Positions 1,756 to 48,174 of a stretch of 64,000 nt of DNA are shown in pieces (the stretch's first letter is position 1; every line of letters starts with the position of its first letter). The stretch is from Escherichia phage moha. The DNA lies in the sequence record MN850590.1, one strand, 5' to 3'. The translations under genes and the position numbers were made by a program. A model generated the notes under the pieces. That model made no database searches. It saw nothing but the letters and a program-made list of their open reading frames with translations, and was not told where the DNA came from.

Positions 1756-2578
1756 GTATTATATAATTTATAAAATAACAAATATAATTAATTCAAAGGA
1801 ATATATCGGTGCGCATAGCACCGATAACATAAATGACGGTTATATGGGGTCAGGAACATTGATTCGTGCCGCTTTATTAAAATATGGTAGAAAAAATTTT
1901 AATAAAGAAATTTTACATGTTTTTGATAATGAAAAACAAATGTATGATAAAGAAGCTGAACTTGTAACCGAAGAGTATTGTCTAAAAGAAAATACATATA
2001 ATATTAAACCTGGTGGAAAAGGTGGAACTGCCTATGAACAGACACTTGAACATCGCCGTAAAAATAGTTTAGCAAATAAAGGTAAAAAGAGAACAGAAGA
2101 AACTAAAATAGCTATTTCACGTGCTTTAAAGAAATATAAACGTACGCCAGAGCATCAAGCAAATTTAAATAAAGCCGTAAGCATAGCTATGAAGCGAAAA
2201 GATGTTAGAAGTAAATTAGCTGGAGAGCGGTCTGAGAAAGATAAATTATCTATATCAAACGGTGTTAAAAAATATTACAATTCTTTGAGTGAAGAAGAAC
2301 GCGAACTTCATCGCAAGCGAATTATTGAAGGTAAAAAGAATTCTCCCATGTCATTGGAATCTAGACAAAAGCTTTCAAAAGCTTTAAAAGGGCTTCAAGT
2401 TGGTTCAAAAAATCCAATGTATGGAAAAATTTCTCCAACTAGCAAAACCGTTTCAGTTGACGGTATTAAATATGATTCAATTAAAAAGTGCTCAAATGCC
2501 ATAAAAGTTTCTAGACATCTTATACTAAAACGCTGTAATTCTACTGATGAAGCTTGGAAAAATTGGATATTATTATGA
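1748..2578 (+). CDS. Free-standing GIY-YIG family homing endonuclease
   Basis: N-terminal YIIYKITN...KEYIGAHS motif block, lysine-rich C-terminal half; overlaps nrdD stop (8 nt) and nrdG start (ATGA). Confidence 0.7.
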   Translation: MHRYYIIYKITNIINSKEYIGAHSTDNINDGYMGSGTLIRAALLKYGRKNFNKEILHVFDNEKQMYDKEAELVTEEYCLKENTYNIKPGGKGGTAYEQTLEHRRKNSLANKGKKRTEETKIAISRALKKYKRTPEHQANLNKAVSIAMKRKDVRSKLAGERSEKDKLSISNGVKKYYNSLSEEERELHRKRIIEGKKNSPMSLESRQKLSKALKGLQVGSKNPMYGKISPTSKTVSVDGIKYDSIKKCSNAIKVSRHLILKRCNSTDEAWKNWILL

Positions 2579-3045
2579 ATTATGATAGATTTTATCCTTG
2601 CGATTTTGTGAATGGCCCTGGTTGCAGGGTCGTTCTTTTCGTTACAGGTTGTTTGCATAAATGCGAAGGGTGTTATAATAAATCAACATGGAATGCTAGA
2701 AATGGTATTCCATTCACCGGAGAGACACTAGAACAATTAATTGAATGTTTGAATAATGATTATATAGAAGGATTGACTATAACCGGAGGTGACCCTCTCT
2801 ATCCTGATAACAGAGATGTGATTCACTCTGTGGTTCAAACTATTAAAAATCTTTATCCCAATAAAAGCATTTGGCTGTGGACAGGATATAAGTTTGAAGA
2901 TATTAAACAGCTAGAAATGCTTAAATATGTTGATGTTATTATTGATGGGAAGTATGAGAAAAATCTTCCGACTAAAAAGCTGTGGCGAGGATCAGATAAT
3001 CAGCGACTTTGGTCAAATACCGATGGGGTGTGGAAACATGATTAA
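2575..3045 (+). CDS. nrdG: Anaerobic RNR activating protein NrdG
   Basis: YPCDFVNGPG and CLHKCEGCYN (CxxxCxxC) motifs; ATG at 2575 preferred over TTG at 2554. Confidence 0.9.
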   Translation: MNYDRFYPCDFVNGPGCRVVLFVTGCLHKCEGCYNKSTWNARNGIPFTGETLEQLIECLNNDYIEGLTITGGDPLYPDNRDVIHSVVQTIKNLYPNKSIWLWTGYKFEDIKQLEMLKYVDVIIDGKYEKNLPTKKLWRGSDNQRLWSNTDGVWKHD

Positions 3046-3155
3046 ATTGAATTACATTATGGATACTATAAATGATATGATTTTTCGTTTTGGTCCAGAA
3101 TTTTATTCGCAATATAGTTTAATGATTATCAATGCTTAGTTAATTAAGGGTAAAT

Positions 3156-9525: not shown

Positions 9526-11210
9526 AATCATTTAAATTAAATCGTGTTCGTTATCAAAACATCATGTCGGTAGGTGGGAATCCTATCGATATCCAATTAG
9601 ATAAAGTCCAAAAGACCTTAATCACCGGTAAAAATGGCGGTGGTAAATCTACGATGTTAGAAGCCATTACTTTCGGACTTTTCGGTAAACCATTTCGTGA
9701 TGTTAAGAAAGGACAAATCATTAATAGCACGAACAAGAAAGAGCTCTTAGTTGAGCTTTGGATGGAATTCGATGATAAAAAATACTTCATTAGACGCGGC
9801 CAAAAGCCCAATATTTTCGAAATCTCCGTTGACGGTGTTCGTCTCGATGAATCTGCCAGCAGTCGTGACTTCCAAGAAGAATTTGAACGTAGCATCGGAA
9901 TGTCATACGCGTCTTTTAAACAAATCGTTGTGCTTGGGACGGCAGGGTATACCCCTTTCATGGCTCTTAGCACCCCTGCTCGTAGAAAACTTGTCGAAGA
10001 CCTTTTAGAAGTCGGCACACTCGCTGAAATGGATAAAATCAATAAGTCTCAAGTTCGAGAACTTAATTCCCAGGGACAAGTTCTCGATGCTAAGAAAGAT
10101 GGTGTTATCCAACAAATTAAGATTTATAACGAGAATATCGAACGTCAAAAGAAATTATCTGGTGATAATGTAGCGCGTCTACAGAATATGTATGACGACC
10201 TAGCCAAAGAAGCTCGTTCATTAAAAGCAGAAATCGAAGAAGCTAATGAGCGACTACTTAATATCGTTCTTGATGAAGACCCTACTGAGGCATTCAACAA
10301 GATAGGACAAGAAGCATTCTTGATTAAATCTAAAATCGACTCATATAACAAAGTTATTAAGATGTATCATGACGGTGGCACATGTCCTACTTGTGCATCA
10401 CAGTTGCACCAGGGTGATCCTATTGTCTCTAAGATTACCGATAAGCTTCACGAATGTAATCACTCATTCGAACAACTTACATGTCACAGAGATAATCTGA
10501 GTGTCCTAGTGGACGAATACAGAGCCAATGTTAAGACTAAACAGGACCTTGCATCTGATATTCGTACCAAGAAACAAGCAATGATTGCCACTATTGATAA
10601 AGCTAAGAAAGTTAAAGCTGCAATAGAGCAAGCCTCAGCAGAATTTATCGACCATGCCGATGAGATAGCTTTGCTTCAAAAAGAACTTGATAAAATCATT
10701 AAAACAAAATCAGATATCGTTCTTGAAAAATACCATCGTGGTATTATCACAGATATGTTAAAAGATTCTGGTATTAAAGGTGCTATCATTAAAAAATATG
10801 TGCCTCTGTTCAACAAGCAGATTAACCATTATCTTAAAATCATGGAAGCTGATTACGTGTTTTCTATTGATGAAGAATTCAATGAATCTATAAAATCACG
10901 TGGTCGTGAAGATTTTAGTTATGCTTCATTTAGTCAAGGTGAAAAAGCACGCATTGATATCGCGTTGTTGTTTACATGGCGAGATATTGCTGAAAAGGTC
11001 TCTGGTGTTAAAATCAACACTCTGATTCTTGATGAGGTTTTTGATGGGGCAGTTGATTCTGAAGCTGTTAAGGCTATAGATACCATTCTTGGAAGTTTAC
11101 AAAATACTAACGTGTTCATTATTTCTCATAGGGACCATGACCCTCAACGTTATGGACAACATTTGCAAATGAGCAAAGTTGGACGATTTACTGTAATGAC
11201 TGTTTCATAA
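9522..11210 (+). CDS. 46: Recombination ATPase subunit gp46 (Rad50/SbcC-like)
   Basis: Walker A GKNGGGKST, coiled-coil middle with CPTC zinc hook, signature/Walker B region LILDEVFD. Confidence 0.9.
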   Translation: MKSFKLNRVRYQNIMSVGGNPIDIQLDKVQKTLITGKNGGGKSTMLEAITFGLFGKPFRDVKKGQIINSTNKKELLVELWMEFDDKKYFIRRGQKPNIFEISVDGVRLDESASSRDFQEEFERSIGMSYASFKQIVVLGTAGYTPFMALSTPARRKLVEDLLEVGTLAEMDKINKSQVRELNSQGQVLDAKKDGVIQQIKIYNENIERQKKLSGDNVARLQNMYDDLAKEARSLKAEIEEANERLLNIVLDEDPTEAFNKIGQEAFLIKSKIDSYNKVIKMYHDGGTCPTCASQLHQGDPIVSKITDKLHECNHSFEQLTCHRDNLSVLVDEYRANVKTKQDLASDIRTKKQAMIATIDKAKKVKAAIEQASAEFIDHADEIALLQKELDKIIKTKSDIVLEKYHRGIITDMLKDSGIKGAIIKKYVPLFNKQINHYLKIMEADYVFSIDEEFNESIKSRGREDFSYASFSQGEKARIDIALLFTWRDIAEKVSGVKINTLILDEVFDGAVDSEAVKAIDTILGSLQNTNVFIISHRDHDPQRYGQHLQMSKVGRFTVMTVS

Positions 11211-17418: not shown

Positions 17419-18054
17419 ATGAAAACTACTCCTATTACTATCGCTATTGACGCAATCGTAAAACAAGCTTCTTCTTTGGCTACTATGGCCAAAGTAATTA
17501 GTCAAAACCCTGCTCGTTATAATGCTATTCTAGAAACTCTTCGACGCCCAGGACTTAGCAATTATGAAAGCCGAGTAATTATTACAGGTGTTGGTAAGAA
17601 TGCTAATATTGCAACTAAAGCTTCTGAGACATTTGCTTCACTCGGTATCCCAAGTATGTACTTGAACACCGGGCATTATTCTCACGGTGATGCAGGATTC
17701 ATTGCGCCTAATGATGTGTTGATTCATATTAGTCGTTCTGGTAAGACCGAAGAAATGATAGGTGTTGCTAAACATCTTCGTATGATTCGTCCGAACGTCA
17801 AACAGATTCTGTTGCATTGTAACCCAGACATTCCACAAGAAAATGAAGCCCTTTTTGATTACTCTTTCTGTACAGGCATCGCAGTAGAGGTTGACGAGAA
17901 CTCTTTAGCTCCGACTATGTCTACTACATTGTTGTTAGCGCTTATCGATACGTTTGCTATCAACCTTTCGTCTGAGCGTGGATTTACCTCTAATGACTTC
18001 CTTAAGTTCCACCCTGGTGGTGCACTAGGTGCCATGTTACGAGGCGAACAATGA
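17419..18054 (+). CDS. SIS-domain sugar-phosphate isomerase (KdsD/GutQ-like arabinose-5-phosphate isomerase, no CBS domains)
   Basis: ITGVGKNANIA, HISRSGKTEE, LAPTMSTT, HPGGALG blocks co-linear with KdsD SIS domain. Confidence 0.8.
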   Translation: MKTTPITIAIDAIVKQASSLATMAKVISQNPARYNAILETLRRPGLSNYESRVIITGVGKNANIATKASETFASLGIPSMYLNTGHYSHGDAGFIAPNDVLIHISRSGKTEEMIGVAKHLRMIRPNVKQILLHCNPDIPQENEALFDYSFCTGIAVEVDENSLAPTMSTTLLLALIDTFAINLSSERGFTSNDFLKFHPGGALGAMLRGEQ

Positions 18055-18235: not shown

Positions 18236-19921
18236 ATGAAAAAAGCTGTTATTCTTGGTGCTGGATTGGCAACTCGTTTATATCCAATAACGCATCATAT
18301 TCCTAAGGTGCTTGTTAACTATAAACAAGACACTATTCTGAGCAATTTGTATACAATTTATTCTGACCTTGGCGCAGATGAAATTATTGTAGTAGTTCAT
18401 TCAAAATTTGCTGAAACTGTTCGAGCTTATTGTGAGCAAGAAGGGTTCAATGTGACTATTCGTACAGTTGATGAAGCGTATGGATCTGCTTATGCTCTTG
18501 CTAAATTACACAAAGATTTAGACGGCCATAATGTAATTGTTAACTGGTGTGATATTATTCCTGATTTTGGTTCATGGTCTTGGAATGTTAACGCAATCTA
18601 TGTTAAAGGTGACGAATGTCGATATAATTTCGACGGTGAAAATATCACTAACGTAGGTTCAACAGGTGGTAATGTTGTAGGAATTTATCAGTTCAAAGAC
18701 TGGGAATTCTATATGGGTTCTACTGATGAAGAAATTCATGAATACTGCAAAGGACGTGATTTCGTAGAATTCCTTTACGCCAGCGCATTCAATAAATCAG
18801 AGCTTATGAATCTAATTGATTTAGGTGATATGCCTAAACTTGAAAAGGCTCATGAAGTTCGTGAACTTAATCGTAGTTTTAATGCAGTTGAAATTGGTGA
18901 AGAAACTGTAACTAAATTCGCATTGACCGAACAGGGTCGAGCTCTTCAGAAAGATGAGATTTCATGGTATCTTAAAGTGAAATCGGATTCAGTTCCTCAG
19001 TTAGTTTCTGTTAATGAAAATAACTTTGAAATGGAACGCATTAAAGGTAAGCCGGCATTTGAATATATTAAATCCAAATCAAGTCTTGCTCGTCCACAAA
19101 TTGTTGATGCAATTTTAGATGCACTGAAATTCAGCACAGACACTTATTTTGTAAGTCCTGAAACTGTTCGTCGTGATTTCACTAAAGAATTCTATACGAA
19201 AGTTATTGATCGTTGTGAAAGCATTCAACCATTGATTGATTCATTTGGTAAAATCACGCATGTGAACTACACTAAGATTGGACGTCTGAAGCCAATGCTG
19301 AAACAAGCTTTAGAACACCTTATTCGTTATCATAACCGTTCTCAGGGGCAGTACTCTGTTATTCACGGTGACCCGAACTTCAGTAATACTATGATTACTG
19401 ATAACGGCGAAGTCAAGTTTATCGACCCTCGTGGATATTTTGGCGAAACCAAGATTTACGGGCCAAAATTGTATGATGAAGCTAAAGTGCTTTATGCTGT
19501 TTCAGGTTATGATGAATTCAATGCTAATCCGACCTGGGGACAGTTTACTATTGATGAAACAACTTGTAATGTGACTATTAACATCAATCCATTAGTTTAC
19601 AAATATGGAAAGATGAGTTCGTTTAACGAGTATCATCATTTGGCAGTGGCAATTATCTGGATTGCATTAGGTGGTTATTTCAAGAATAATCCACTTAAAG
19701 CGGTAGCCGCATATTATAAAGGTATGGAACTTCTGACTAAGCAATTACGTAACATGGGCCGTGTACTTCAGGACGGCTCTATTAGTTATGACGTAGCAGA
19801 ACCTGTAACGGCTACTCTGATTACAAAAAATCCTGGTAAATGGGTACTAACTGATAAAGAAACTGGTGTTTCCTATCGTCCAATCGGTGGCGATATCACT
19901 CATCAATGGGAACGAATCTAA
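18236..19921 (+). CDS. Bifunctional sugar-1-phosphate nucleotidyltransferase / APH-fold sugar kinase
   Basis: N-terminal AVILGAGLATRL nucleotidyltransferase motif; C-terminal HGDPNFSN (HxDxxxxN) and IDPRG kinase motifs. Confidence 0.7.
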   Translation: MKKAVILGAGLATRLYPITHHIPKVLVNYKQDTILSNLYTIYSDLGADEIIVVVHSKFAETVRAYCEQEGFNVTIRTVDEAYGSAYALAKLHKDLDGHNVIVNWCDIIPDFGSWSWNVNAIYVKGDECRYNFDGENITNVGSTGGNVVGIYQFKDWEFYMGSTDEEIHEYCKGRDFVEFLYASAFNKSELMNLIDLGDMPKLEKAHEVRELNRSFNAVEIGEETVTKFALTEQGRALQKDEISWYLKVKSDSVPQLVSVNENNFEMERIKGKPAFEYIKSKSSLARPQIVDAILDALKFSTDTYFVSPETVRRDFTKEFYTKVIDRCESIQPLIDSFGKITHVNYTKIGRLKPMLKQALEHLIRYHNRSQGQYSVIHGDPNFSNTMITDNGEVKFIDPRGYFGETKIYGPKLYDEAKVLYAVSGYDEFNANPTWGQFTIDETTCNVTININPLVYKYGKMSSFNEYHHLAVAIIWIALGGYFKNNPLKAVAAYYKGMELLTKQLRNMGRVLQDGSISYDVAEPVTATLITKNPGKWVLTDKETGVSYRPIGGDITHQWERI

Positions 19922-20307
19922 TGCCCCGTGTAGAAAACATGCTTAATCTTTGTTTTGATGTCGATGATTGCATCACGGAATGGAATAACAATCGTGATTA
20001 CGTGAACTTCAAACCAGACGTCGAAATGGTGTCTGCCATTAATGCCCTGTATGATGCAGGGCATACCATAACGCTTTACACTGCTCGTGGTATGAAGTCA
20101 GTAGGTCCTGGTCGTATAGCAATTGACATTCTCCCAAGTCTGATTCAGAACTTGGAAAACATTGGTTTGAAGTACCATAATTTGCTAACACATAAACCAG
20201 TATATGATTGGATTATCGACGACAAAGCTATGCGTCCTGATGAATTCAAAGCTCTTATGAATAAAGGCGAATTCGAAACATTTAAATCATATAAACCAAA
20301 TCTATAA
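19921..20307 (+). CDS. HAD-superfamily phosphatase (small, KdsC/GmhB-like)
   Basis: Motif I FDVDDCIT, motif IV IIDDK; ATG 19921 overlaps upstream stop (alternative ATG 19906). Confidence 0.6.
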   Translation: MPRVENMLNLCFDVDDCITEWNNNRDYVNFKPDVEMVSAINALYDAGHTITLYTARGMKSVGPGRIAIDILPSLIQNLENIGLKYHNLLTHKPVYDWIIDDKAMRPDEFKALMNKGEFETFKSYKPNL

Positions 20308-21802: not shown

Positions 21803-22519
21803 ATGGGAAAACATAACACAATGAAATATATCAAAGCCGCAGATTTTCAAACCGCATTTAAAGCAGTCAATCGTGAAATTTTAGAAAACCCGGAATTCGT
21901 AACTGATTCTCGTATTGGACGTTGTAATGAAATTGGGTCTATGACAGTAGTTGTTGACACTCCATCATCATTCAAAATGACCGACCCACGTATTAACCGC
22001 ATCTCTTATGAATATGCCGAAGACTTCTGGAAGTTTATGATTTCTGGTGGTACCAACGCAGAAGAAGCGTTTAAGGCATATCCTAATGTCGCTAAATTTA
22101 TTTCTAAACCAAAATCAGATGTTTTGCCGGCGAACTTCAACACTTTCTATGGTCCTCGCATTGCGGCTCAATTACCAGCTCTTCTAAAAGAACTTAAAGA
22201 GAAGCCTAACTCTCGAAGAGTTGTGTTCCAAATTCTAGAAAGTTCTGATCAGGCTTTGCTTGATTCGGACGAAACGCTTGAATATCCATGTACTGACTCA
22301 GTGACTTATTATATTCGTGATGGTAAGCTTTATACCCACTGTCATATGCGTTCTCAGAACTGTGCTGTTGTTATGCAGTTGGATTTTTATCTCCAAGGAA
22401 AATTACTTCATTATATCGCTAACGAATGTGGTGTAGAAGTTGGTGATTATACTCATACCATGGTAAGTGCCCATGTGTTTGAACGTGATTTTGATTATGT
22501 TAAAGGATTCCTTGACTAA
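21803..22519 (+). CDS. 42: ThyA-fold pyrimidine hydroxymethylase (dCMP hydroxymethylase-like)
   Basis: Candidate nucleophile Cys in EYPCTDSV and HMRSQN block typical of thymidylate synthase/dCMP hydroxymethylase family; position of T4 gene 42. Confidence 0.7.
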   Translation: MGKHNTMKYIKAADFQTAFKAVNREILENPEFVTDSRIGRCNEIGSMTVVVDTPSSFKMTDPRINRISYEYAEDFWKFMISGGTNAEEAFKAYPNVAKFISKPKSDVLPANFNTFYGPRIAAQLPALLKELKEKPNSRRVVFQILESSDQALLDSDETLEYPCTDSVTYYIRDGKLYTHCHMRSQNCAVVMQLDFYLQGKLLHYIANECGVEVGDYTHTMVSAHVFERDFDYVKGFLD

Positions 22520-23418
22520 TGGCTATTTTCCGCGTACCTATCTTGAGTATGCGGTCTTATGAAACTGGACAGTATGCTATCCTTAAGGATGGCAACTTCC
22601 AACTTCATTTGCACCGTGCTAATCCAGGTGATGTGATTACATATCCACGTAATGCATCTGATATTAAAGAATGTGAACGTCTTTTCCCAGAATTTAAGTT
22701 TGTTCCATTATGGTATAAAGATAACGCGTATAACACTCGTAAATATTTCTGGTCTGAAAATGAATTTGTGGTTGATTCATTAATTGCTTATTATGATTGT
22801 GATTTTCTAATCACAGATATCACTGGATATGATGGTGCTTTTGATGTAGAATTCAATTTCAATATCACTGCAGACCCTAATAAACCACGTTTTTATATTG
22901 ACGAATTCTTAAAAACTGATATGTTGTCGGTTAATCGTTCACTTCAAACTACTGTGTTGAATGAACGTCAAAAAGAAGTGCTGGTTAACGCAGGTGCAAA
23001 TGGTAATAAGATTATCGTAACGCAGAAAGTTATACGTCCTTCCATCATGCAGCGTCTTGTAGGTGATTTGGCTCCTATTCATCTAGATGGTATTTTTCAT
23101 CCATTTCGAATTAGTGACCCATGCTATCGTTTTGAACAAGTGGTTGAATGTGCAATTCAATTAGGTCAACCGCTTTATATAACCGATCCAAATAATAGCT
23201 TCGACAGAAATAAGTATCCTGAAGAAGCGTTGATTCGAATTTTTAAACCAACTAAAACTGAGTACTATCAAATTCTTAAAGGACGTCCGAAGATTCAATA
23301 TTTCGAAAATCCTGAAGAAGTATTCCATCCAGGTCTTGGTGAGTTCATCTACTTTAATGCTTTAATTTCTTCGCCGTATAATATACCTAAATACGAAGAT
23401 GTCGTAATCGAGGAATAA
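22519..23418 (+). CDS. Hypothetical protein in the beta-gt slot (candidate DNA-modification enzyme)
   Basis: 299-aa ORF, no recognised motifs; lies where T4 has beta-glucosyltransferase. Confidence 0.55.
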   Translation: MAIFRVPILSMRSYETGQYAILKDGNFQLHLHRANPGDVITYPRNASDIKECERLFPEFKFVPLWYKDNAYNTRKYFWSENEFVVDSLIAYYDCDFLITDITGYDGAFDVEFNFNITADPNKPRFYIDEFLKTDMLSVNRSLQTTVLNERQKEVLVNAGANGNKIIVTQKVIRPSIMQRLVGDLAPIHLDGIFHPFRISDPCYRFEQVVECAIQLGQPLYITDPNNSFDRNKYPEEALIRIFKPTKTEYYQILKGRPKIQYFENPEEVFHPGLGEFIYFNALISSPYNIPKYEDVVIEE

Positions 23419-23419
23419 A

Positions 23420-23968
23420 ATGGCTAAAATTATTTTAGTAGACGGCCCAGATAATGCTGGTAAAACAACTTTCATTAATGACATAATGGAAATTAGTGAA
23501 AGATATGTAAAGATTGATTTCCCTAAACGAACAGTTGATGGACGTTTCGATGTTAAGTCTCGAAATGAAGTTGGCTGTTTCGAAACGATGTTGAATTATT
23601 TAGACCCTACTAAGATTTATCTGTTAGACCGTGGATATATTAGTAACTGGGTTTATGGACGTATTCGACAAGATGCGGACTCGGTTCTTGATGTTTATGA
23701 ACAGGATTATGTTCGTCTTTGCCAAAACCATGATGTGTTCACAATTATTTTAACACGTAACGAAATGACTGAAAGTTTTGAAGACGACCTTATTACTTTG
23801 TCTTCATTCGGTTTTAATACAGTCATTTCACATTTTGAAGAGTTTGCAATTCATAACAAAATCCAAACGTATCAATTACTTAATCATGATGGTGCTAACA
23901 AAGTTATAGGATTTAATGCAAGCGAACGTAATGATTTGATTACAGAAATCATCAAATGGGCTCGTTAA
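23420..23968 (+). CDS. P-loop nucleoside-monophosphate kinase-like protein (Tmk-like)
   Basis: Walker A DGPDNAGKTT; LDRGY...YG resembles thymidylate kinase DRY/lid region. Confidence 0.6.
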   Translation: MAKIILVDGPDNAGKTTFINDIMEISERYVKIDFPKRTVDGRFDVKSRNEVGCFETMLNYLDPTKIYLLDRGYISNWVYGRIRQDADSVLDVYEQDYVRLCQNHDVFTIILTRNEMTESFEDDLITLSSFGFNTVISHFEEFAIHNKIQTYQLLNHDGANKVIGFNASERNDLITEIIKWAR

Positions 23969-42208: not shown

Positions 42209-42631
42209 ATGGCTTTTAAAGGTTTTGAAGTTGGTAAGAAATATCGTATTATTAAAGGACAGGAAGATAATTTCTTGAGAATTCTTAATACGACTGGTAA
42301 ACGTCTTAACACTACTCTGCATACAGTTTTATTATCAAGAGATTTTATTGTAGAAGAGATGATTGGTTATGGTGTTTCAATGATTGCCGCTGAAACCGAT
42401 GGACCTGGACGTACAATCATTAGTATGCAAGGTGATATTCTAATTTACGGTGCAGAATTTAAATTCTTTGAAGAAGTTCCTGAATCAGATACAGCCGTAG
42501 ATTTCAAAAAAGGCTCTATAGAATTTGTTGATGGTTCGGTGATCGTATCAGGTGATGTGGTCATTACAGTTAAAAGTGAACAAGGGCGTTTGGCTGCAAT
42601 TGATGCACTTCAGAAAATTAAATTTAAATAA
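42209..42631 (+). CDS. Hypothetical protein
   Basis: 140-aa ORF; terminator follows. Confidence 0.5.
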   Translation: MAFKGFEVGKKYRIIKGQEDNFLRILNTTGKRLNTTLHTVLLSRDFIVEEMIGYGVSMIAAETDGPGRTIISMQGDILIYGAEFKFFEEVPESDTAVDFKKGSIEFVDGSVIVSGDVVITVKSEQGRLAAIDALQKIKFK

Positions 42632-42648
42632 GGGCTTCGGCCCTTTTT
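42632..42648 (+). terminator. Intrinsic terminator
   Basis: GGGC-TTCG-GCCC followed by TTTTT. Confidence 0.7.
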
Positions 42649-42672
42649 GCTTTAGATTTCGGATGATAGAAT
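42648..42672 (+). promoter_or_regulatory. MotA-dependent middle promoter upstream of gene 39
   Basis: TGCTTTA (42648-42654), 12-nt spacer, -10 TAGAAT (42667-42672). Confidence 0.5.
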
Positions 42673-42694: not shown

Positions 42695-44512
42695 ATGATT
42701 AAAAATGAAATTAAGGTATTGTCAGATGTAGAACATATTAAGAAACGTAGTGGTATGTATATTGGTTCTTCTGCTAAAGAAGCACATGAGCGTTTTTTGT
42801 TTGGTAAATATCAACAAGTTGAATATGTTCCTGGTCTGGTTAAATTAATCGATGAGATTATTGACAACTCGGTTGATGAATCTATTCGTACATCATTTAA
42901 GTTTGCAAATAAAATTGATGTGCAAATTAAAAATAATCAAGTTTCGGTGGAAGATAACGGACGTGGTATTCCTCAAGGTTTAGTTACCGACCAAACAGGT
43001 GAACAAATTCCTGGGCCTGTAGCAGCCTGGACTATTCCAAAGGCTGGTGGTAACTTTGGTGATGATTCTGAACGCAAGACTGGTGGTATGAACGGCGTCG
43101 GGAGTAGTTTAACTAATATCTTCTCTACGTTGTTTACAGGCATCACGTCAGATGGCGAAAATGAAATCACTGTTAATTGTTCAAACGGAATGGAAAACAA
43201 ATCATGGTCTTCTAAGAAATCTAAATGTAAAGGCACTAAAGTAATCTTCACTCCTGATTTCTCTTCATTTGAAGAGCATAATTTATCTCAAATTTATTTA
43301 GATATTACTTTAGACAGACTTCAAACATTGGCAGTCGTTTATCCTGATATCAAGTTCACATTTAATGGTAAAAAGGTTGATGGTAATTTTAAACGATTTG
43401 CTAAACAATTTGGTGAAGATAACATCATTCAAGAAAATGATAAAGTCTCTATAGCATTCACAACATCACCAGATGGCTTCCGTCATTTAACTTATGTGAA
43501 TAACATCCATACTAAAAATGGTGGTCATCATGTTGAATGTGTAATGGATGATATCTGCGAACATCTTTTGCCCGGTATTAAAAAGAAATATAAGGGTATT
43601 GAAGTCACTAAAGCTCGTGTTAAAGAATGTCTCACAATGTTGATGTTTATTAGAGACATGAGCAACATGCGTTTTGATTCTCAGACTAAAGAACGTTTAA
43701 CGTCAACGTATGGTGATATTCGTAATCATATCCAATTAGATGCTAAGAAAATTGCTCAGGCACTTCTTAAAAACGAAGCCTTGATTATGCCTATTGTTGA
43801 AGCAGCATTAGCTCGTAAATTGGCAGCAGAAAAGGCTGCAGAAACTAAAGCAGCTAAAAAGGCAACTAAAGCTAAGGTTCATAAGCATATTAAAGCTAAC
43901 CAATGTGGTAAAGATGCAGATACGACATTGTTTTTAACAGAAGGTGATTCGGCAATTGGTTATCTCATTGATGTTCGTGACCGTGAACTACACGGCGGAT
44001 TCCCATTACGTGGTAAGGTGATGAATAGCTGGGGTATGTCATATGCTGATATGATGAAGAACAAAGAGCTCTTTGATATCTGTGCTATCACGGGTCTTAT
44101 TCTTGGTGAAAAGGCAGAGAATACGAACTATCGTAATATTGCAATTATGACCGATGCCGATCATGACGGTCTTGGAAGTATCTATCCGGCTTTGCTTGCT
44201 TTCTTTAGTAATTGGCCTGAATTGTTTGAACAAGGACGTATTCGCTTTGTTAAAACACCTGTAATTATTGCACAAATTGGCAAAGCTCAAAAATGGTTTT
44301 ATACTGTAGCTGAGTATGAAGAAGTTAAAGATACACTGCCTAAGCATAGTATTCGATACATCAAGGGATTAGGCTCCCTTGAAAAGTCAGAATATCGTGA
44401 AATGATTCAGAACCCTGTGTACGACGTAGTTAAACTTCCTGAAAATTGGAAAGAACTCTTTGAAATGTTGATGGGTGATGATTCAGAACTTCGTAAAGAA
44501 TGGATGTCCTAA
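42695..44512 (+). CDS. 39: DNA topoisomerase II large (ATPase, GyrB-like) subunit gp39, unsplit form
   Basis: GHKL ATPase motifs (IDNSVDE, EDNGRGIP), Toprim block; 605 aa single ORF. Confidence 0.9.
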   Translation: MIKNEIKVLSDVEHIKKRSGMYIGSSAKEAHERFLFGKYQQVEYVPGLVKLIDEIIDNSVDESIRTSFKFANKIDVQIKNNQVSVEDNGRGIPQGLVTDQTGEQIPGPVAAWTIPKAGGNFGDDSERKTGGMNGVGSSLTNIFSTLFTGITSDGENEITVNCSNGMENKSWSSKKSKCKGTKVIFTPDFSSFEEHNLSQIYLDITLDRLQTLAVVYPDIKFTFNGKKVDGNFKRFAKQFGEDNIIQENDKVSIAFTTSPDGFRHLTYVNNIHTKNGGHHVECVMDDICEHLLPGIKKKYKGIEVTKARVKECLTMLMFIRDMSNMRFDSQTKERLTSTYGDIRNHIQLDAKKIAQALLKNEALIMPIVEAALARKLAAEKAAETKAAKKATKAKVHKHIKANQCGKDADTTLFLTEGDSAIGYLIDVRDRELHGGFPLRGKVMNSWGMSYADMMKNKELFDICAITGLILGEKAENTNYRNIAIMTDADHDGLGSIYPALLAFFSNWPELFEQGRIRFVKTPVIIAQIGKAQKWFYTVAEYEEVKDTLPKHSIRYIKGLGSLEKSEYREMIQNPVYDVVKLPENWKELFEMLMGDDSELRKEWMS

Positions 44513-44536
44513 GCTCCTTCGGGAGCTTCATTTTAA
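44511..44536 (+). terminator. Intrinsic terminator after gene 39
   Basis: AAGCTCC-TTCG-GGAGCTT followed by CATTTTAATTTT. Confidence 0.65.
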
Positions 44537-44554
44537 TTTTAATAAGGCTTAATT

Positions 44555-45655
44555 ATGAAAGTTATGTTTATCCCATCTCGTGCAGTCCCATTTAACCCAG
44601 AACGTGTACAAGGTGGTCTTGAAGCAGTACATTTAAATGTGTTGAAATATCTTGTGTCCATCGGTGCCGATATTGATTATATTGGTTTTGATAATGACAC
44701 ATTTGGTGATTGGAAGGTTAATCATCATCCTGTTGGTCATCTGACTAAATTCAGTCTAGGTATGAGTTATACTATGGCTCGTAAGATTGTTGAACTAGCC
44801 GGCATCCATGAATACGATTTTGTTGTTACTATGGAACCGACTAAACTAACCGTTCAGGCAATTAAAGACGCAGGTCTCTCTAAAGTTCATAAGAATTTTA
44901 TGGCAACACCATTTGAACCGGTATCTCGTGGCATTGTTCAAATTTGGGACCAGACTATTCAAATTCATAAGAATGGTGGTAAGAGTTATGCTCCTACTAA
45001 AGCCTTCCGTGAATTTGAACGTAAATATTGTTATATGACTTCAGGTCTGACTGACAAAATTGATTATGATTATTGGCGAGCAAATCCTTTGTTTGAAGCC
45101 GAAGATTATCCGGTTATTTGTTTGACTGAAAAGCCAGAAGTTCTTCCGGCGACGGATCTGATTATTAGTGCACAACGTTATGACACTAAAATGCGTCGTA
45201 CTGATGTTGCTCTTGAAGCGATTAAAGCACTAGGCGAAAATGGTGCAGGATACTGTCCAAGCAAATGGGCGCCACCGGCTAAATATCCTGTTATTATTGA
45301 TGCTCCACACAGTGAAATTATGGAACGTCTTAAAACAGCTAAAGCACTTATTAATACGTGTCCTGACACAGGTACGGTAGAGAATAGTTCTATTGAAGCC
45401 ATCTCTAAAGGTGTCCCTGTAATCCAGTTAGTTTTTAAGGATTATCCTCATGCGACATTTGAATACGACCCAGATACTGTGCGTGTAGAAATTGATTCCT
45501 CTACTCCTAAGAAAGAAGTAGTTGCGCTTTACACAAAAGCTGTATTAGAATTCACTGACACATACGAAGCTCGAGTTAAACGTGCTGAAGCAGTATGGAA
45601 GAAGTATAACCGAGATGCAGTTGTTGCGATGTGGGATAAAATCTTCACAGCGTAA
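44555..45655 (+). CDS. GT-B fold glycosyltransferase (candidate DNA sugar transferase)
   Basis: N-terminal MKVMFIPS...GG.E.V and C-terminal ENSSIEAISKGVPVIQ resembling GT-B donor-binding E-x7-E region. Confidence 0.6.
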   Translation: MKVMFIPSRAVPFNPERVQGGLEAVHLNVLKYLVSIGADIDYIGFDNDTFGDWKVNHHPVGHLTKFSLGMSYTMARKIVELAGIHEYDFVVTMEPTKLTVQAIKDAGLSKVHKNFMATPFEPVSRGIVQIWDQTIQIHKNGGKSYAPTKAFREFERKYCYMTSGLTDKIDYDYWRANPLFEAEDYPVICLTEKPEVLPATDLIISAQRYDTKMRRTDVALEAIKALGENGAGYCPSKWAPPAKYPVIIDAPHSEIMERLKTAKALINTCPDTGTVENSSIEAISKGVPVIQLVFKDYPHATFEYDPDTVRVEIDSSTPKKEVVALYTKAVLEFTDTYEARVKRAEAVWKKYNRDAVVAMWDKIFTA

Positions 45656-45747: not shown

Positions 45748-45948
45748 ATGAGAACATATAACGTGGACTTGGAACTTTTTGATAAAGCAGTGCTCCGGGA
45801 ATTCCGGCTTATCCAAAGATTTTTTGATATCGAATCAGCAGAGTCCTTTAAAGAACGCTTTAAAGAAATTCGATATAAAATACAAACCGATACAGCTACT
45901 AAAGAAGAACTTCTTGAAGTAGCAGAAATTTTTAAACGTAACTTGTGA
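45748..45948 (+). CDS. Hypothetical protein (rIIA.1 position)
   Basis: 66-aa ORF. Confidence 0.45.
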   Translation: MRTYNVDLELFDKAVLREFRLIQRFFDIESAESFKERFKEIRYKIQTDTATKEELLEVAEIFKRNL

Positions 45949-45960
45949 TGAGAGAAAAAT

Positions 45961-48174
45961 ATGATTATTGAAACGGCTAAAGAAACGATTATTGGTTCAG
46001 GCGGTAAGAGCACAGCATTCACTATTCAAGGCAATAGCAAAGTTTATAAGATTTTGTCTAATGACCTTTATACAAACAAAGAATTGGCTTGTGTACGTGA
46101 ATTAATCACAAACTGTATCGATGGACAAATTCTTAATGGTTGCACTGATAAGTTTATTGTTCAGGCTCCAGGTCGTTTAGACCCACGTTTTGTAGTTCGA
46201 GACTTTGGTCCTGGTATGAGTGATTTCACCATTCGAGGTAATGACGAAGAGCCAGGAATCTATAACTCATATTTTGCTTCAACTAAAACATCGAGTAACG
46301 ATTTCATTGGTGGATTCGGACTCGGCTCTAAAGCTCCATTAGCATATACCGATACGTTTAACCTTACGTCTTATCACAACGGTGAAGTTCGTGGTTACGT
46401 AATCTACCAAGATGACACTGGTCCACAGATTAAGCCAACCTTCGTAGATAAGATGGGTCCTGATGACCGGACCGGCGTTGAAGTAGTTGTACCGGTTAAC
46501 CCAGAAGATTTTGAAAAGTTCGCATCCGAAATTGCATATGTTATGCGTCCTCTAGGTGATATTGCAGAAGTTCGCGGTGTTAAAGATATCAAATACTTTC
46601 CTGAATTCGATGATGTTTATTTAGCCAAGGAAGCTCCATGGGGTGAACGTGGTAATATCATGGCTGTTTATGGTGGTATTGTATATCCAATCGGAAGTGT
46701 TATTAAAGAACAAACATGGATGATGACGCGATGCACTACAGCTTATATTAAATTCCCTATGGGTGAACTAGATGTAGCCCCGTCTCGTGAAGCATTGTCA
46801 TTTGATAAACGTACAGTAGCAAATATCCATAAACGCGTTGCAGAAATCGATGCTAAATTGTTCGCTGAAGATTCTAAGAAATGGATTGATTGTAAATACC
46901 CACGTCATGTGTTCCGTGAAATTGATTCTCTTGGCTATACCGCTCGTAAATACATGGAAAAGGCTGGGTCTAATATTGAATCACTGAAATACTCTAAAGA
47001 ACAACTAACTTATTCCGAGTTGTACAAACGTTTTAAAATGGGACCCGAATGGTGCAACCTTGGCGTTGTATATGATATCGTTTCAGACCCACGACTTCGT
47101 CGTATTCGTGAAAGCGGAAGCTCGTCTGCAACTATTTCAATTAATAGCCTGCTAGGTATTAGTCGTAAGCATATTGATATCGTTATTGACGATGTGAAAG
47201 GCCGCGTACCAATGATGCGTGCTCTGAACGATGCTTTGACTTCCACCGATGCATCAACACTCGTTGATAAGGTTCCTTCCGGATGGGGTAGTAGCGTATT
47301 ATTCATTAACCCGGAAGATGAAGTTGCAATGAAACTTCTGGAACGATTAAAGGTTATTTTCGCTGGTGATAGCCTTAAATTTTATAAGACCTCTGAAATT
47401 CTTGCATTAGTTAAACCATGGATTGAAGTTAAAGAACGTTCATCGCAGCCTCGTCCTAAATCCCCAAGTGCTCATCGGTTCTTTAAGAATGAAAACGATG
47501 TTTGGGTATCGGAAGATCTCTTTATTCCAGCGAGTGAAGCTGGTGAAATCCAAGGTTATGCTATAGTTCGTAATCGTTCTAATGCTGAATGTCTTGACGC
47601 AGATAAAGGTTGGTTGAACTATGACTCTAATTTCTTGACCCGTATTGCTGATTTGTCAGATATTAAAGAGTTCACTGTAGTCCGTCCACAGATTGCTAAG
47701 AAAGTTCGTAAACTTGGTGAAGTAGAATGCTTGTTCGAAAAATCAATTAATGACTATATTACGCTAATCGATAAAGTAGATTATGATGAGTATGTATCAC
47801 CAAGTCGTAGAGCACAGCCCTATCTAAACCATATTACTCGTAATGAAGAGCTTAACTTCCTTAGTAAGTATTTTAGCTCTAAGAACAAAGAAATCAGTAA
47901 AGATTTTGCAAAACTCTCCACAGTAAATAATCGCTGGGGATGGAATCGATTCGCAGGTGCTACTAATACAGACCTGAATAAGAAGTTAGAATTGTGTGCT
48001 AAAATTTTCGATAAGCTTAAAGATAATGCTTACGATAATGATGATAAAATGATTATTGAATTCGAAACCAATTATCATATTGTGTCAGAATACATGGGAC
48101 GACGTGGTACTCTTTCAAAAGAACAGGTCGCTCAAATCGTTAAATTCATGAAGGCCGTGGAAGCGGCCAAATAA
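45961..48174 (+). CDS. rIIA: rIIA protein
   Basis: 737 aa, N-terminal HATPase-like region; followed by rIIB; T4 synteny. Confidence 0.85.
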   Translation: MIIETAKETIIGSGGKSTAFTIQGNSKVYKILSNDLYTNKELACVRELITNCIDGQILNGCTDKFIVQAPGRLDPRFVVRDFGPGMSDFTIRGNDEEPGIYNSYFASTKTSSNDFIGGFGLGSKAPLAYTDTFNLTSYHNGEVRGYVIYQDDTGPQIKPTFVDKMGPDDRTGVEVVVPVNPEDFEKFASEIAYVMRPLGDIAEVRGVKDIKYFPEFDDVYLAKEAPWGERGNIMAVYGGIVYPIGSVIKEQTWMMTRCTTAYIKFPMGELDVAPSREALSFDKRTVANIHKRVAEIDAKLFAEDSKKWIDCKYPRHVFREIDSLGYTARKYMEKAGSNIESLKYSKEQLTYSELYKRFKMGPEWCNLGVVYDIVSDPRLRRIRESGSSSATISINSLLGISRKHIDIVIDDVKGRVPMMRALNDALTSTDASTLVDKVPSGWGSSVLFINPEDEVAMKLLERLKVIFAGDSLKFYKTSEILALVKPWIEVKERSSQPRPKSPSAHRFFKNENDVWVSEDLFIPASEAGEIQGYAIVRNRSNAECLDADKGWLNYDSNFLTRIADLSDIKEFTVVRPQIAKKVRKLGEVECLFEKSINDYITLIDKVDYDEYVSPSRRAQPYLNHITRNEELNFLSKYFSSKNKEISKDFAKLSTVNNRWGWNRFAGATNTDLNKKLELCAKIFDKLKDNAYDNDDKMIIEFETNYHIVSEYMGRRGTLSKEQVAQIVKFMKAVEAAK

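Follow-up and report, generated by a model that had tools for sequence, protein, structure and literature searches.

A gene of 366 amino acids (aa) lies between topoisomerase gene 39 and rIIA of Escherichia phage moha (MN850590.1), and the locus raises the question of which sugar its product transfers and to which acceptor. The analysis covered a stretch of 64,000 nucleotides of this genome (the window). An earlier note on the same DNA had read the open reading frame (ORF) as a GT-B glycosyltransferase from its terminal motifs, and the ORF, the fold and the motif positions bear this out (MKVMFIPS...GGLEAV at residues 1-25 and VENSSIEAISKGVPVIQ at residues 275-291). The ATG-initiated ORF is a real gene and no random frame, given its presence in 211 phage records, its low ratio of nonsynonymous to synonymous substitution rates (dN/dS) and the crystallization of a 98% identical protein. 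It encodes a glycosyltransferase of the cytosine-arabinosylation pathway. The enzyme is probably a DNA transferase that uses uridine diphosphate (UDP)-arabinofuranose (UDP-Araf) and adds the second, beta-1,3-linked arabinose to arabinosyl-5-hydroxycytosine (Ara-5hoC), as suggested by its relatives and by the genes that accompany it.

Sequence comparisons assign the window to Mosigvirus, closest to Escherichia phage APCEc01 and the species mar005p1. Over the ORF the DNA is 99.9% identical to that of APCEc01, in which the gene is annotated as 'hypothetical protein'. The RB69 ortholog ORF003c/gp3 (RB69p003, NP_861693.1) also has 366 aa, is 99.2% identical (three substitutions, E16D, T191N and T327I) and occupies the same position between gene 39 and rIIA.1, showing no substantive difference from the window gene beyond belonging to another Mosigvirus isolate. 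The glycosyltransferase of phage HY126, whose apo structure (PDB 9IQZ) and UDP complex (9IR0) were released on 2025-07-16, is 98% identical to the window protein and differs from it by a few substitutions and an N-terminal tag. The AlphaFold2 model of the window protein is globular throughout (predicted local distance difference test score, pLDDT, of 92) and consists of two Rossmann-like domains in a GT-B arrangement that matches the solved HY126 structure and resembles GT4 members. Membrane or secretion features were not noticed in the sequence or in the globular model, and the product is a soluble, GT4-like GT-B glycosyltransferase.

The protein matches PHROG 8302, a family whose function is not named, over residues 1-366 (E 3e-222). 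No Pfam family was found even at E <= 10, no NCBIfam model matched, and none of the Pfam, NCBIfam and PHROGs scans gave a functional name. The family is very small: a set of 5.8 billion proteins contains 5 clusters of it at 90% identity, and a set of 1.8 billion contains ~10 representatives at E <= 1e-10. Of the aligned relatives, P0017, the most distant one, is alone in passing the Pfam Glycos_transf_1 model (34.6 bits vs. a cut-off of 26.4). The canonical C-terminal motif of GT4 enzymes is E-x7-E, whereas the acidic motif of the whole family is a shorter E-x4-E (E276-NSSI-E281). In a 13-sequence alignment, E281 and H299 are invariant and G20, G21, R208 and E276 are at least 90% conserved, all of which are present in the window protein. 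The conserved G20-G21, R208, E276 and E281 overlap the residues highlighted by Thomas et al. 2018 (PMC6024577). The isoelectric point (pI) of 6.3 is not basic, and charge is uninformative as a clue to DNA binding.

The earlier note had placed the sugar on hydroxymethylcytosine (hmC), and this part of its reading has to be abandoned. The window contains a full arabinosylation cluster downstream of the DNA polymerase gene at ~17.4-24.0 kb (Table 1), ~21 kb from the ORF as the earlier note had it. Thus the phage that carries the 366-aa ORF also carries a 5-hydroxy-dCMP (5hodCMP) synthase gene, UDP-Araf genes and a second GT-B glycosyltransferase gene, GT1. The thymidylate-synthase (ThyA) homolog of the cluster matches PDB 9IQC/9IR2 (E 8e-161). 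Ungapped comparison with E. coli ThyA showed that R166 and S167 are kept, whereas D169 is replaced by N186 and N177 by D194; D169N is the signature of 5-hydroxy-dCMP synthase defined in PMC13326640. Given the D169N/N177D exchanges and the near-identity to 9IQC, the product is a flavin-type 5-hydroxy-dCMP synthase rather than a dCMP hydroxymethylase, and the phage makes 5-hydroxycytosine (5hoC) and not hmC. The published record agrees: Lee et al. 2026 identified the modified base as 5hoC, not hmC, made by a D169N thymidylate-synthase homolog (PMC13326640), and Mosigvirus DNA carries arabinosyl-5hoC (PMC13326640, PMC13390438). Since the acceptor base is 5hoC, the transfer assay on hmC-containing DNA proposed in the earlier note would be misleading and would probably be negative for the wrong reason. 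Many GenBank records annotate the 5-hydroxy-dCMP synthase as thymidylate synthase or dCMP hydroxymethylase.

The gene itself is already known, the idea of a transferase having been published in 2018 and refined in 2025-2026, with the structure public as PDB 9IQZ/9IR0. Thomas et al. 2018 reported arabinose in RB69 DNA, nominated ORF003c as the arabinosyltransferase through hidden Markov models (HMMs) and HHpred, with ~10% identity to the T4 alpha- and beta-glucosyltransferases (alpha-GT and beta-GT) visible with custom HMMs only, and listed APCEc01 among the phages with an arabinosylation-associated cluster (PMC6024577). Lee et al. 2026 showed that RB69 DNA is mono- and di-arabinosylated, the di form being beta-D-Araf-(1->3)-alpha-D-Araf-5hodC by nuclear magnetic resonance (NMR), and that DLP3 DNA carries a beta-(1->5)-beta-(1->3)-alpha tri-arabinose; the first (alpha) transfer was proposed for RB69 gp46:47, the ortholog of GT1, and the role of 'beta-arabinosyltransferase 2' for gp3 (PMC13326640). 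The Durham-collection paper gives a ratio of mono- to di-arabinosyl-dC of 1:4 in the Mosigvirus NP and calls this gene the second putative arabinosyltransferase (PMC13390438), and the Mosigviruses Bas46 and Bas47 are doubly arabinosylated (PMC12923530).

The two transferase families, which are unrelated at the sequence level, differ in distribution. GT1 homologs occur in 348 phage records and form at least 137 protein clusters, from phages of Escherichia (Mosigvirus, Dhakavirus), Klebsiella, Enterobacter, Serratia, Yersinia, Proteus, Edwardsiella, Shewanella and Acinetobacter. Every T4-like phage that arabinosylates its DNA has GT1. The 211 records of the 366-aa family comprise Mosigvirus (at least 95% identity), 55 Acinetobacter phages and one Tegunavirus. 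Mosigvirus has a single copy, the Acinetobacter phages have two each (~42% identical to the window protein), and JS98 and Thanatos have GT1 only. The two copies of the Lazarusvirus phages DLP2 and DLP3 lie in the cluster, directly after its ThyA-like, GT1 and kinase genes. In Thanatos DNA, hydroxylated cytosine bears one pentose (PMC13326640). The number of family copies (0, 1 or 2) tracks the count of beta-Araf units past the base-proximal alpha-Araf, and this match to the NMR-derived count therefore supports a role of the ORF in adding the second arabinose. The earlier note had seen in the enzyme the most plausible transferase for the nucleoside diphosphate (NDP)-sugar of the cluster; the link to the pathway stands, with the Acinetobacter homologs lying in the cluster itself, but it is not the sole transferase, GT1 being the other.

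The DLP3 proteins gp77 and gp76 are relatives with experimental data. Both belong to PHROG 8302, are 43% and 41% identical to the window protein over the full length and share its conserved motifs, and in vitro they lengthen arabinose chains on DNA with UDP-Araf as donor; jointly, and neither alone, they add a third Araf to RB69 DNA (PMC13326640). They differ from the window gene in that they are two paralogs, 58% mutually identical and located in the cluster, whereas the window has one gene ~21 kb away, and in that their tri-arabinosyl product is not present in Mosigvirus DNA. Together with 9IR0, in which the 98% identical HY126 protein is bound to UDP, these homologs give indirect support to UDP binding and to the use of UDP-Araf by the window enzyme.

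In the proposed pathway, the genes at ~17.4-20.3 kb would supply the donor UDP-D-arabinofuranose, and GT1 would first place an alpha-arabinofuranose on 5-hydroxycytosine. The 366-aa enzyme would then add the second sugar on the phage DNA, giving beta-D-Araf-(1->3)-alpha-D-Araf-5-hydroxy-deoxycytidine, the modified base that predominates in Mosigvirus DNA, and the thicker sugar coat would widen the protection of the genome against DNA-targeting host defences. We infer the second rather than the first step, the beta-1,3 linkage, and the co-transcription with gene 39 in the middle class described below; the assignment of the beta-1,3 bond is added by the present analysis and is correlation-based.

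Comparisons with known glycosyltransferases place the enzyme closer to bacterial proteins than to those of T4. The T4 alpha-GT (PDB 1Y6F/1XV5) ranks 35th among the structural matches, behind ~30 bacterial GT4 enzymes, the T4 beta-GT is not among the top 60, and no sequence search revealed homology to either. The T-even glucosyltransferases act on hmC derived from a gp42-type dCMP hydroxymethylase, in the place of which the window has the D169N ThyA homolog. The window enzyme most likely transfers to a sugar hydroxyl of Ara-5hoC, whereas the T4 enzymes use the hydroxymethyl group of hmC. A functional parallel is the beta-alpha-glucosyltransferase of T2 and T6, which makes gentiobiosyl-hmC and is likewise a second phage transferase that adds a sugar to an already glycosylated cytosine in DNA, but it differs in its sugar (glucose vs. 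arabinofuranose) and its base (hmC vs. 5hoC), and to our knowledge it has no detectable sequence relationship to the window enzyme. The structural kin are the bacterial retaining GT4 enzymes (BshA, PimA, MshA, WaaG and sucrose-phosphate synthase), although the window protein fails the Pfam glycosyltransferase models. These enzymes have E-x7-E and are retaining, whereas the window enzyme has E-x4-E, a DNA-borne acceptor and a predicted product that is beta-linked.

Several points weigh against the second-step assignment. A direct assay of the window protein or of RB69 gp3 was not found in the accessible literature, and the order of action is drawn from phylogenetic distribution, that is, from a correlation. 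He et al. 2026 reportedly crystallised the HY126 ortholog and Mahler et al. 2025 reportedly deleted an arabinosyltransferase (Aat) gene in Bas46, and these studies may assign a different step; according to a citing paper, the Aat deletion sensitised Bas46 to a defence system. A PDB match exists for the 366-aa protein and none for GT1, and the depositors may treat the former as the main transferase. The role of gp3 was proposed but not confirmed in PMC13326640, and since the DLP3 enzymes are inactive singly (PMC13326640) a family member that occurs alone may require a partner. Every structural neighbour is a retaining GT4 enzyme, whereas a beta linkage is predicted for the product, so the fit hinges on the anomeric form of the donor.

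The same observations bear on the alternatives. The 366-aa enzyme might be the primary DNA arabinosyltransferase, placing the first arabinose on hydroxylated cytosine while GT1 does something else. Thomas et al. 2018 proposed ORF003c in this capacity (PMC6024577), the protein is the only glycosyltransferase of the pathway with a deposited structure ('phage HY126 glycosyltransferase'), and for the GT1 homolog TH1_063 of Thanatos, a GT-B-fold protein 47.5% identical to the window GT1, the formation of UDP-xylose but no transferase activity is reported (PMC12838424), a result that conflicts with the proposed role of GT1 as the first arabinosyltransferase. However, most arabinosylating phages lack the 366-aa family yet keep GT1, and Thanatos lacks it and still has pentosylated hydroxycytosine. 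The copy number follows the extra beta-Araf units rather than the presence of the modification, and GT1 itself has a GT-B fold and is encoded by a gene that directly adjoins and overlaps that of the 5hodCMP synthase. A primary role is thus unlikely.

Dependence on a partner, for example on GT1 in a complex that controls chain length or processivity, would make the 366-aa protein an accessory component. This would agree with the requirement for both DLP3 gp76 and gp77 and with the finding that no single glycosyltransferase acted on 5hoC DNA (PMC13326640). However, the nucleotide-binding and catalytic-type residues G20, G21, R208, E276 and E281 are retained in full, the HY126 ortholog binds UDP alone, and Mosigvirus has only one family member and hence no paralog partner, so that such dependence appears quite improbable. 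An acceptor other than DNA (the host envelope or its lipopolysaccharide (LPS), or a phage or host protein), unrelated to DNA modification, is the most remote of the alternatives. The nearest structural relatives (PimA, WaaG, WaaB and BshA) do have lipids, LPS cores and small molecules as substrates, one 38% identical homolog lies among the structural genes of an unrelated phage contig, and the protein is not basic. However, the family is found together with the 5hoC/arabinose cluster, inside which its genes lie in Acinetobacter phages; the paralogs of these phages act on DNA in vitro, and the sequence and the globular model showed no noticeable membrane or secretion features. The addition of the second arabinose to phage DNA is therefore the preferred reading.

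Both transferases have retaining-type folds and presumably share the same UDP-D-Araf donor, yet one linkage is alpha and the other beta; one of them should therefore have a stereochemical outcome opposite to that of all its structural relatives. It is conceivable, though on balance doubtful, that one of the two GT4-like transferases, possibly the 366-aa enzyme, is inverting on a GT4-like scaffold with a short E-x4-E motif and acts on a sugar attached to duplex DNA.

Table 1 Features of the window around the glycosyltransferase gene and in the arabinosylation cluster
Feature	Coordinates	Strand	Basis or remark
SIS-domain arabinose-5-phosphate isomerase (RB69 gp55 ortholog)	17419..18054	+	Pfam SIS; role from PMC13326640
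Bifunctional sugar kinase/NDP-sugar pyrophosphorylase (RB69 gp52:53, HY126 AfhE analog)	18236..19921	+	
133-aa protein (RB69 gp51/HY126 AfhF position)	19906..20307	+	Cluster position; no Pfam match
Peptidase-U32-family (U32-like) protein, 386 aa	20365..21525	+	Within the arabinosylation cluster
Thymidylate-synthase homolog, predicted 5-hydroxy-dCMP synthase type (RB69 gp48 ortholog)	21803..22519	+	Pfam Thymidylat_synt
GT1, second GT-B glycosyltransferase, 299 aa (RB69 gp46:47, DLP3 gp79 ortholog)	22519..23418	+	
Nucleotide kinase-like protein, 182 aa (RB69 gp45 position)	23420..23968	+	Cluster position; homologs annotated thymidylate kinase
MotA-box-type middle-promoter-like site, GCTTTA-N12-TAGAAT	42649..42672	+	Pattern scan; upstream of gene 39
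Gene 39, topoisomerase subunit, 605 aa	42695..44512		5' neighbour of the 366-aa ORF
C(UUCG)G tetraloop hairpin, 7-bp stem, then T-rich tail	44511..44528	+	Terminator scan; overlaps the gene 39 stop
AAGG, Shine-Dalgarno-like element	44544..44547	+	7 nt 5' of the ORF ATG; read from the sequence
GT-B glycosyltransferase gene, 366 aa	44555..45655	+	Stop included; ortholog of RB69 ORF003c/gp3 and HY126 (9IQZ/9IR0); PHROG 8302
rIIA.1	45748..45948		3' side of the 366-aa ORF
rIIA	45961..48174		Beyond rIIA.1

The equivalent interval of T4 holds only mobA, 60.1, 60 and rIIA.1, in agreement with the earlier statement that T4 has no glycosyltransferase here, and the Dhakavirus JS98 has no annotated gene in it. 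In JS98 (NC_010105.1) an unannotated gap of ~590 bp (2437..3024) runs from rIIA.1 to gene 39 at the position of the Mosigvirus glycosyltransferase gene; a tblastn search of this gap detected no remnant of the gene. The guanine-cytosine (GC) content of the ORF is 0.38-0.40, the same as that of the neighbouring genes, and horizontal transfer, considered as a candidate origin, was ruled out on this ground. Comparisons among Mosigviruses gave a dN/dS of 0.04-0.11, and the ORF is thus under strong purifying selection and maintained.

The start of the gene had been placed immediately after the gene 39 terminator. A hairpin does overlap the gene 39 stop, 27 nt upstream of the ATG, but it is terminator-like without being a proven terminator, and it could also be an mRNA-stabilising intercistronic hairpin; its centroid fold has -10.5 kcal/mol, with a z-score of just -0.66 against shuffles, which is not exceptional. 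A second C(UUCG)G tetraloop hairpin (42630..42648, +) precedes gene 39 and is directly followed by a MotA-box-like GCTTTA, so that the two hairpins both sit right at gene ends and flank gene 39.

Sites of the MotA-box type (GCTTYA-N11-13-TANNNT) are strongly enriched: the window has 24, compared with an expectation of 5.4, and none of 100 shuffles reached 24. Such sites precede gene 39 (42649), three cluster genes (18184, 21762 and 23359) and rIIA (45857), and many of the plus-strand sites checked fall just 5' of genes. The pattern scan found none between the hairpin and the ORF ATG (44513 to 44555), and sigma-70-like matches do not exceed the number expected from shuffles (4 vs. 5.3); a promoter of its own for the ORF was ruled out on these two grounds. 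The site before gene 39 is the nearest candidate promoter for a transcript of gene 39 and the glycosyltransferase gene. As the stretch from the hairpin to the ORF start is free of MotA-type sites, the ORF is probably transcribed by readthrough from the promoter of gene 39, which would put it in the middle temporal class, like the sugar cluster.

Within the cluster, the kinase/pyrophosphorylase gene product has a Pfam NTP_transferase match, weak kinase-family matches and NCBIfam uridylyltransferase-like matches, and by analogy with the function given in PMC13326640 it is taken to make UDP-arabinofuranose. By the same analogy, the 133-aa protein may be a HAD-like phosphatase acting on Araf-1,5-bisphosphate. 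The role of the U32-like protein has been guessed as 'sugar or heterocycle reductase' (PMC13326640); its gene is missing from the clusters of Lazarusvirus (DLP2/DLP3) and JS98.

Multi-arabinosylated 5hoC protects the genomes of Mosigvirus against restriction enzymes, CRISPR-Cas and DNA glycosylases, and the number of sugars alters which host defences still work (PMC13326640, PMC13216743, PMC12923530). Identification of the gene for the second sugar is useful for the engineering of therapeutic-candidate phages, for the preparation of defined modified DNA substrates and for annotation. In discovery the present analysis does not go past the 2018-2026 literature and PDB 9IQZ/9IR0. Curated databases are behind this literature: the family has no name in Pfam, PHROGs v4 or NCBIfam, and of the 200+ copies in GenBank nearly all still bear the label 'hypothetical protein' or, wrongly, 'DNA alpha-glucosyltransferase'. 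Labels of the orthologs also include ATP-binding protein and GDP-mannose-dependent phosphatidylinositol mannosyltransferase.

The 38% identical family member mentioned above lies at 10001..11140 of a 21-kb contig of Logan SRR34261890, among structural genes (gp13-like, DUF4815 and terminase); the contig apparently belongs to another kind of phage, and arabinosylation genes are not visible on it. The distant homologs P0009 and P0010 have no arabinosylation genes within their short contigs, which carries no weight either way. Shigella phage JK45 (NC_054940.1), filed under Tequatrovirus despite carrying the Mosigvirus glycosyltransferase gene, has an extra coding sequence of 136 aa (2694..3104) downstream of the intact gene, in which the first five codons of rIIA.1 (MRTYN) are joined to glycosyltransferase residues ~237 to 366; either part of the gene was duplicated in tandem or the assembly is at fault.

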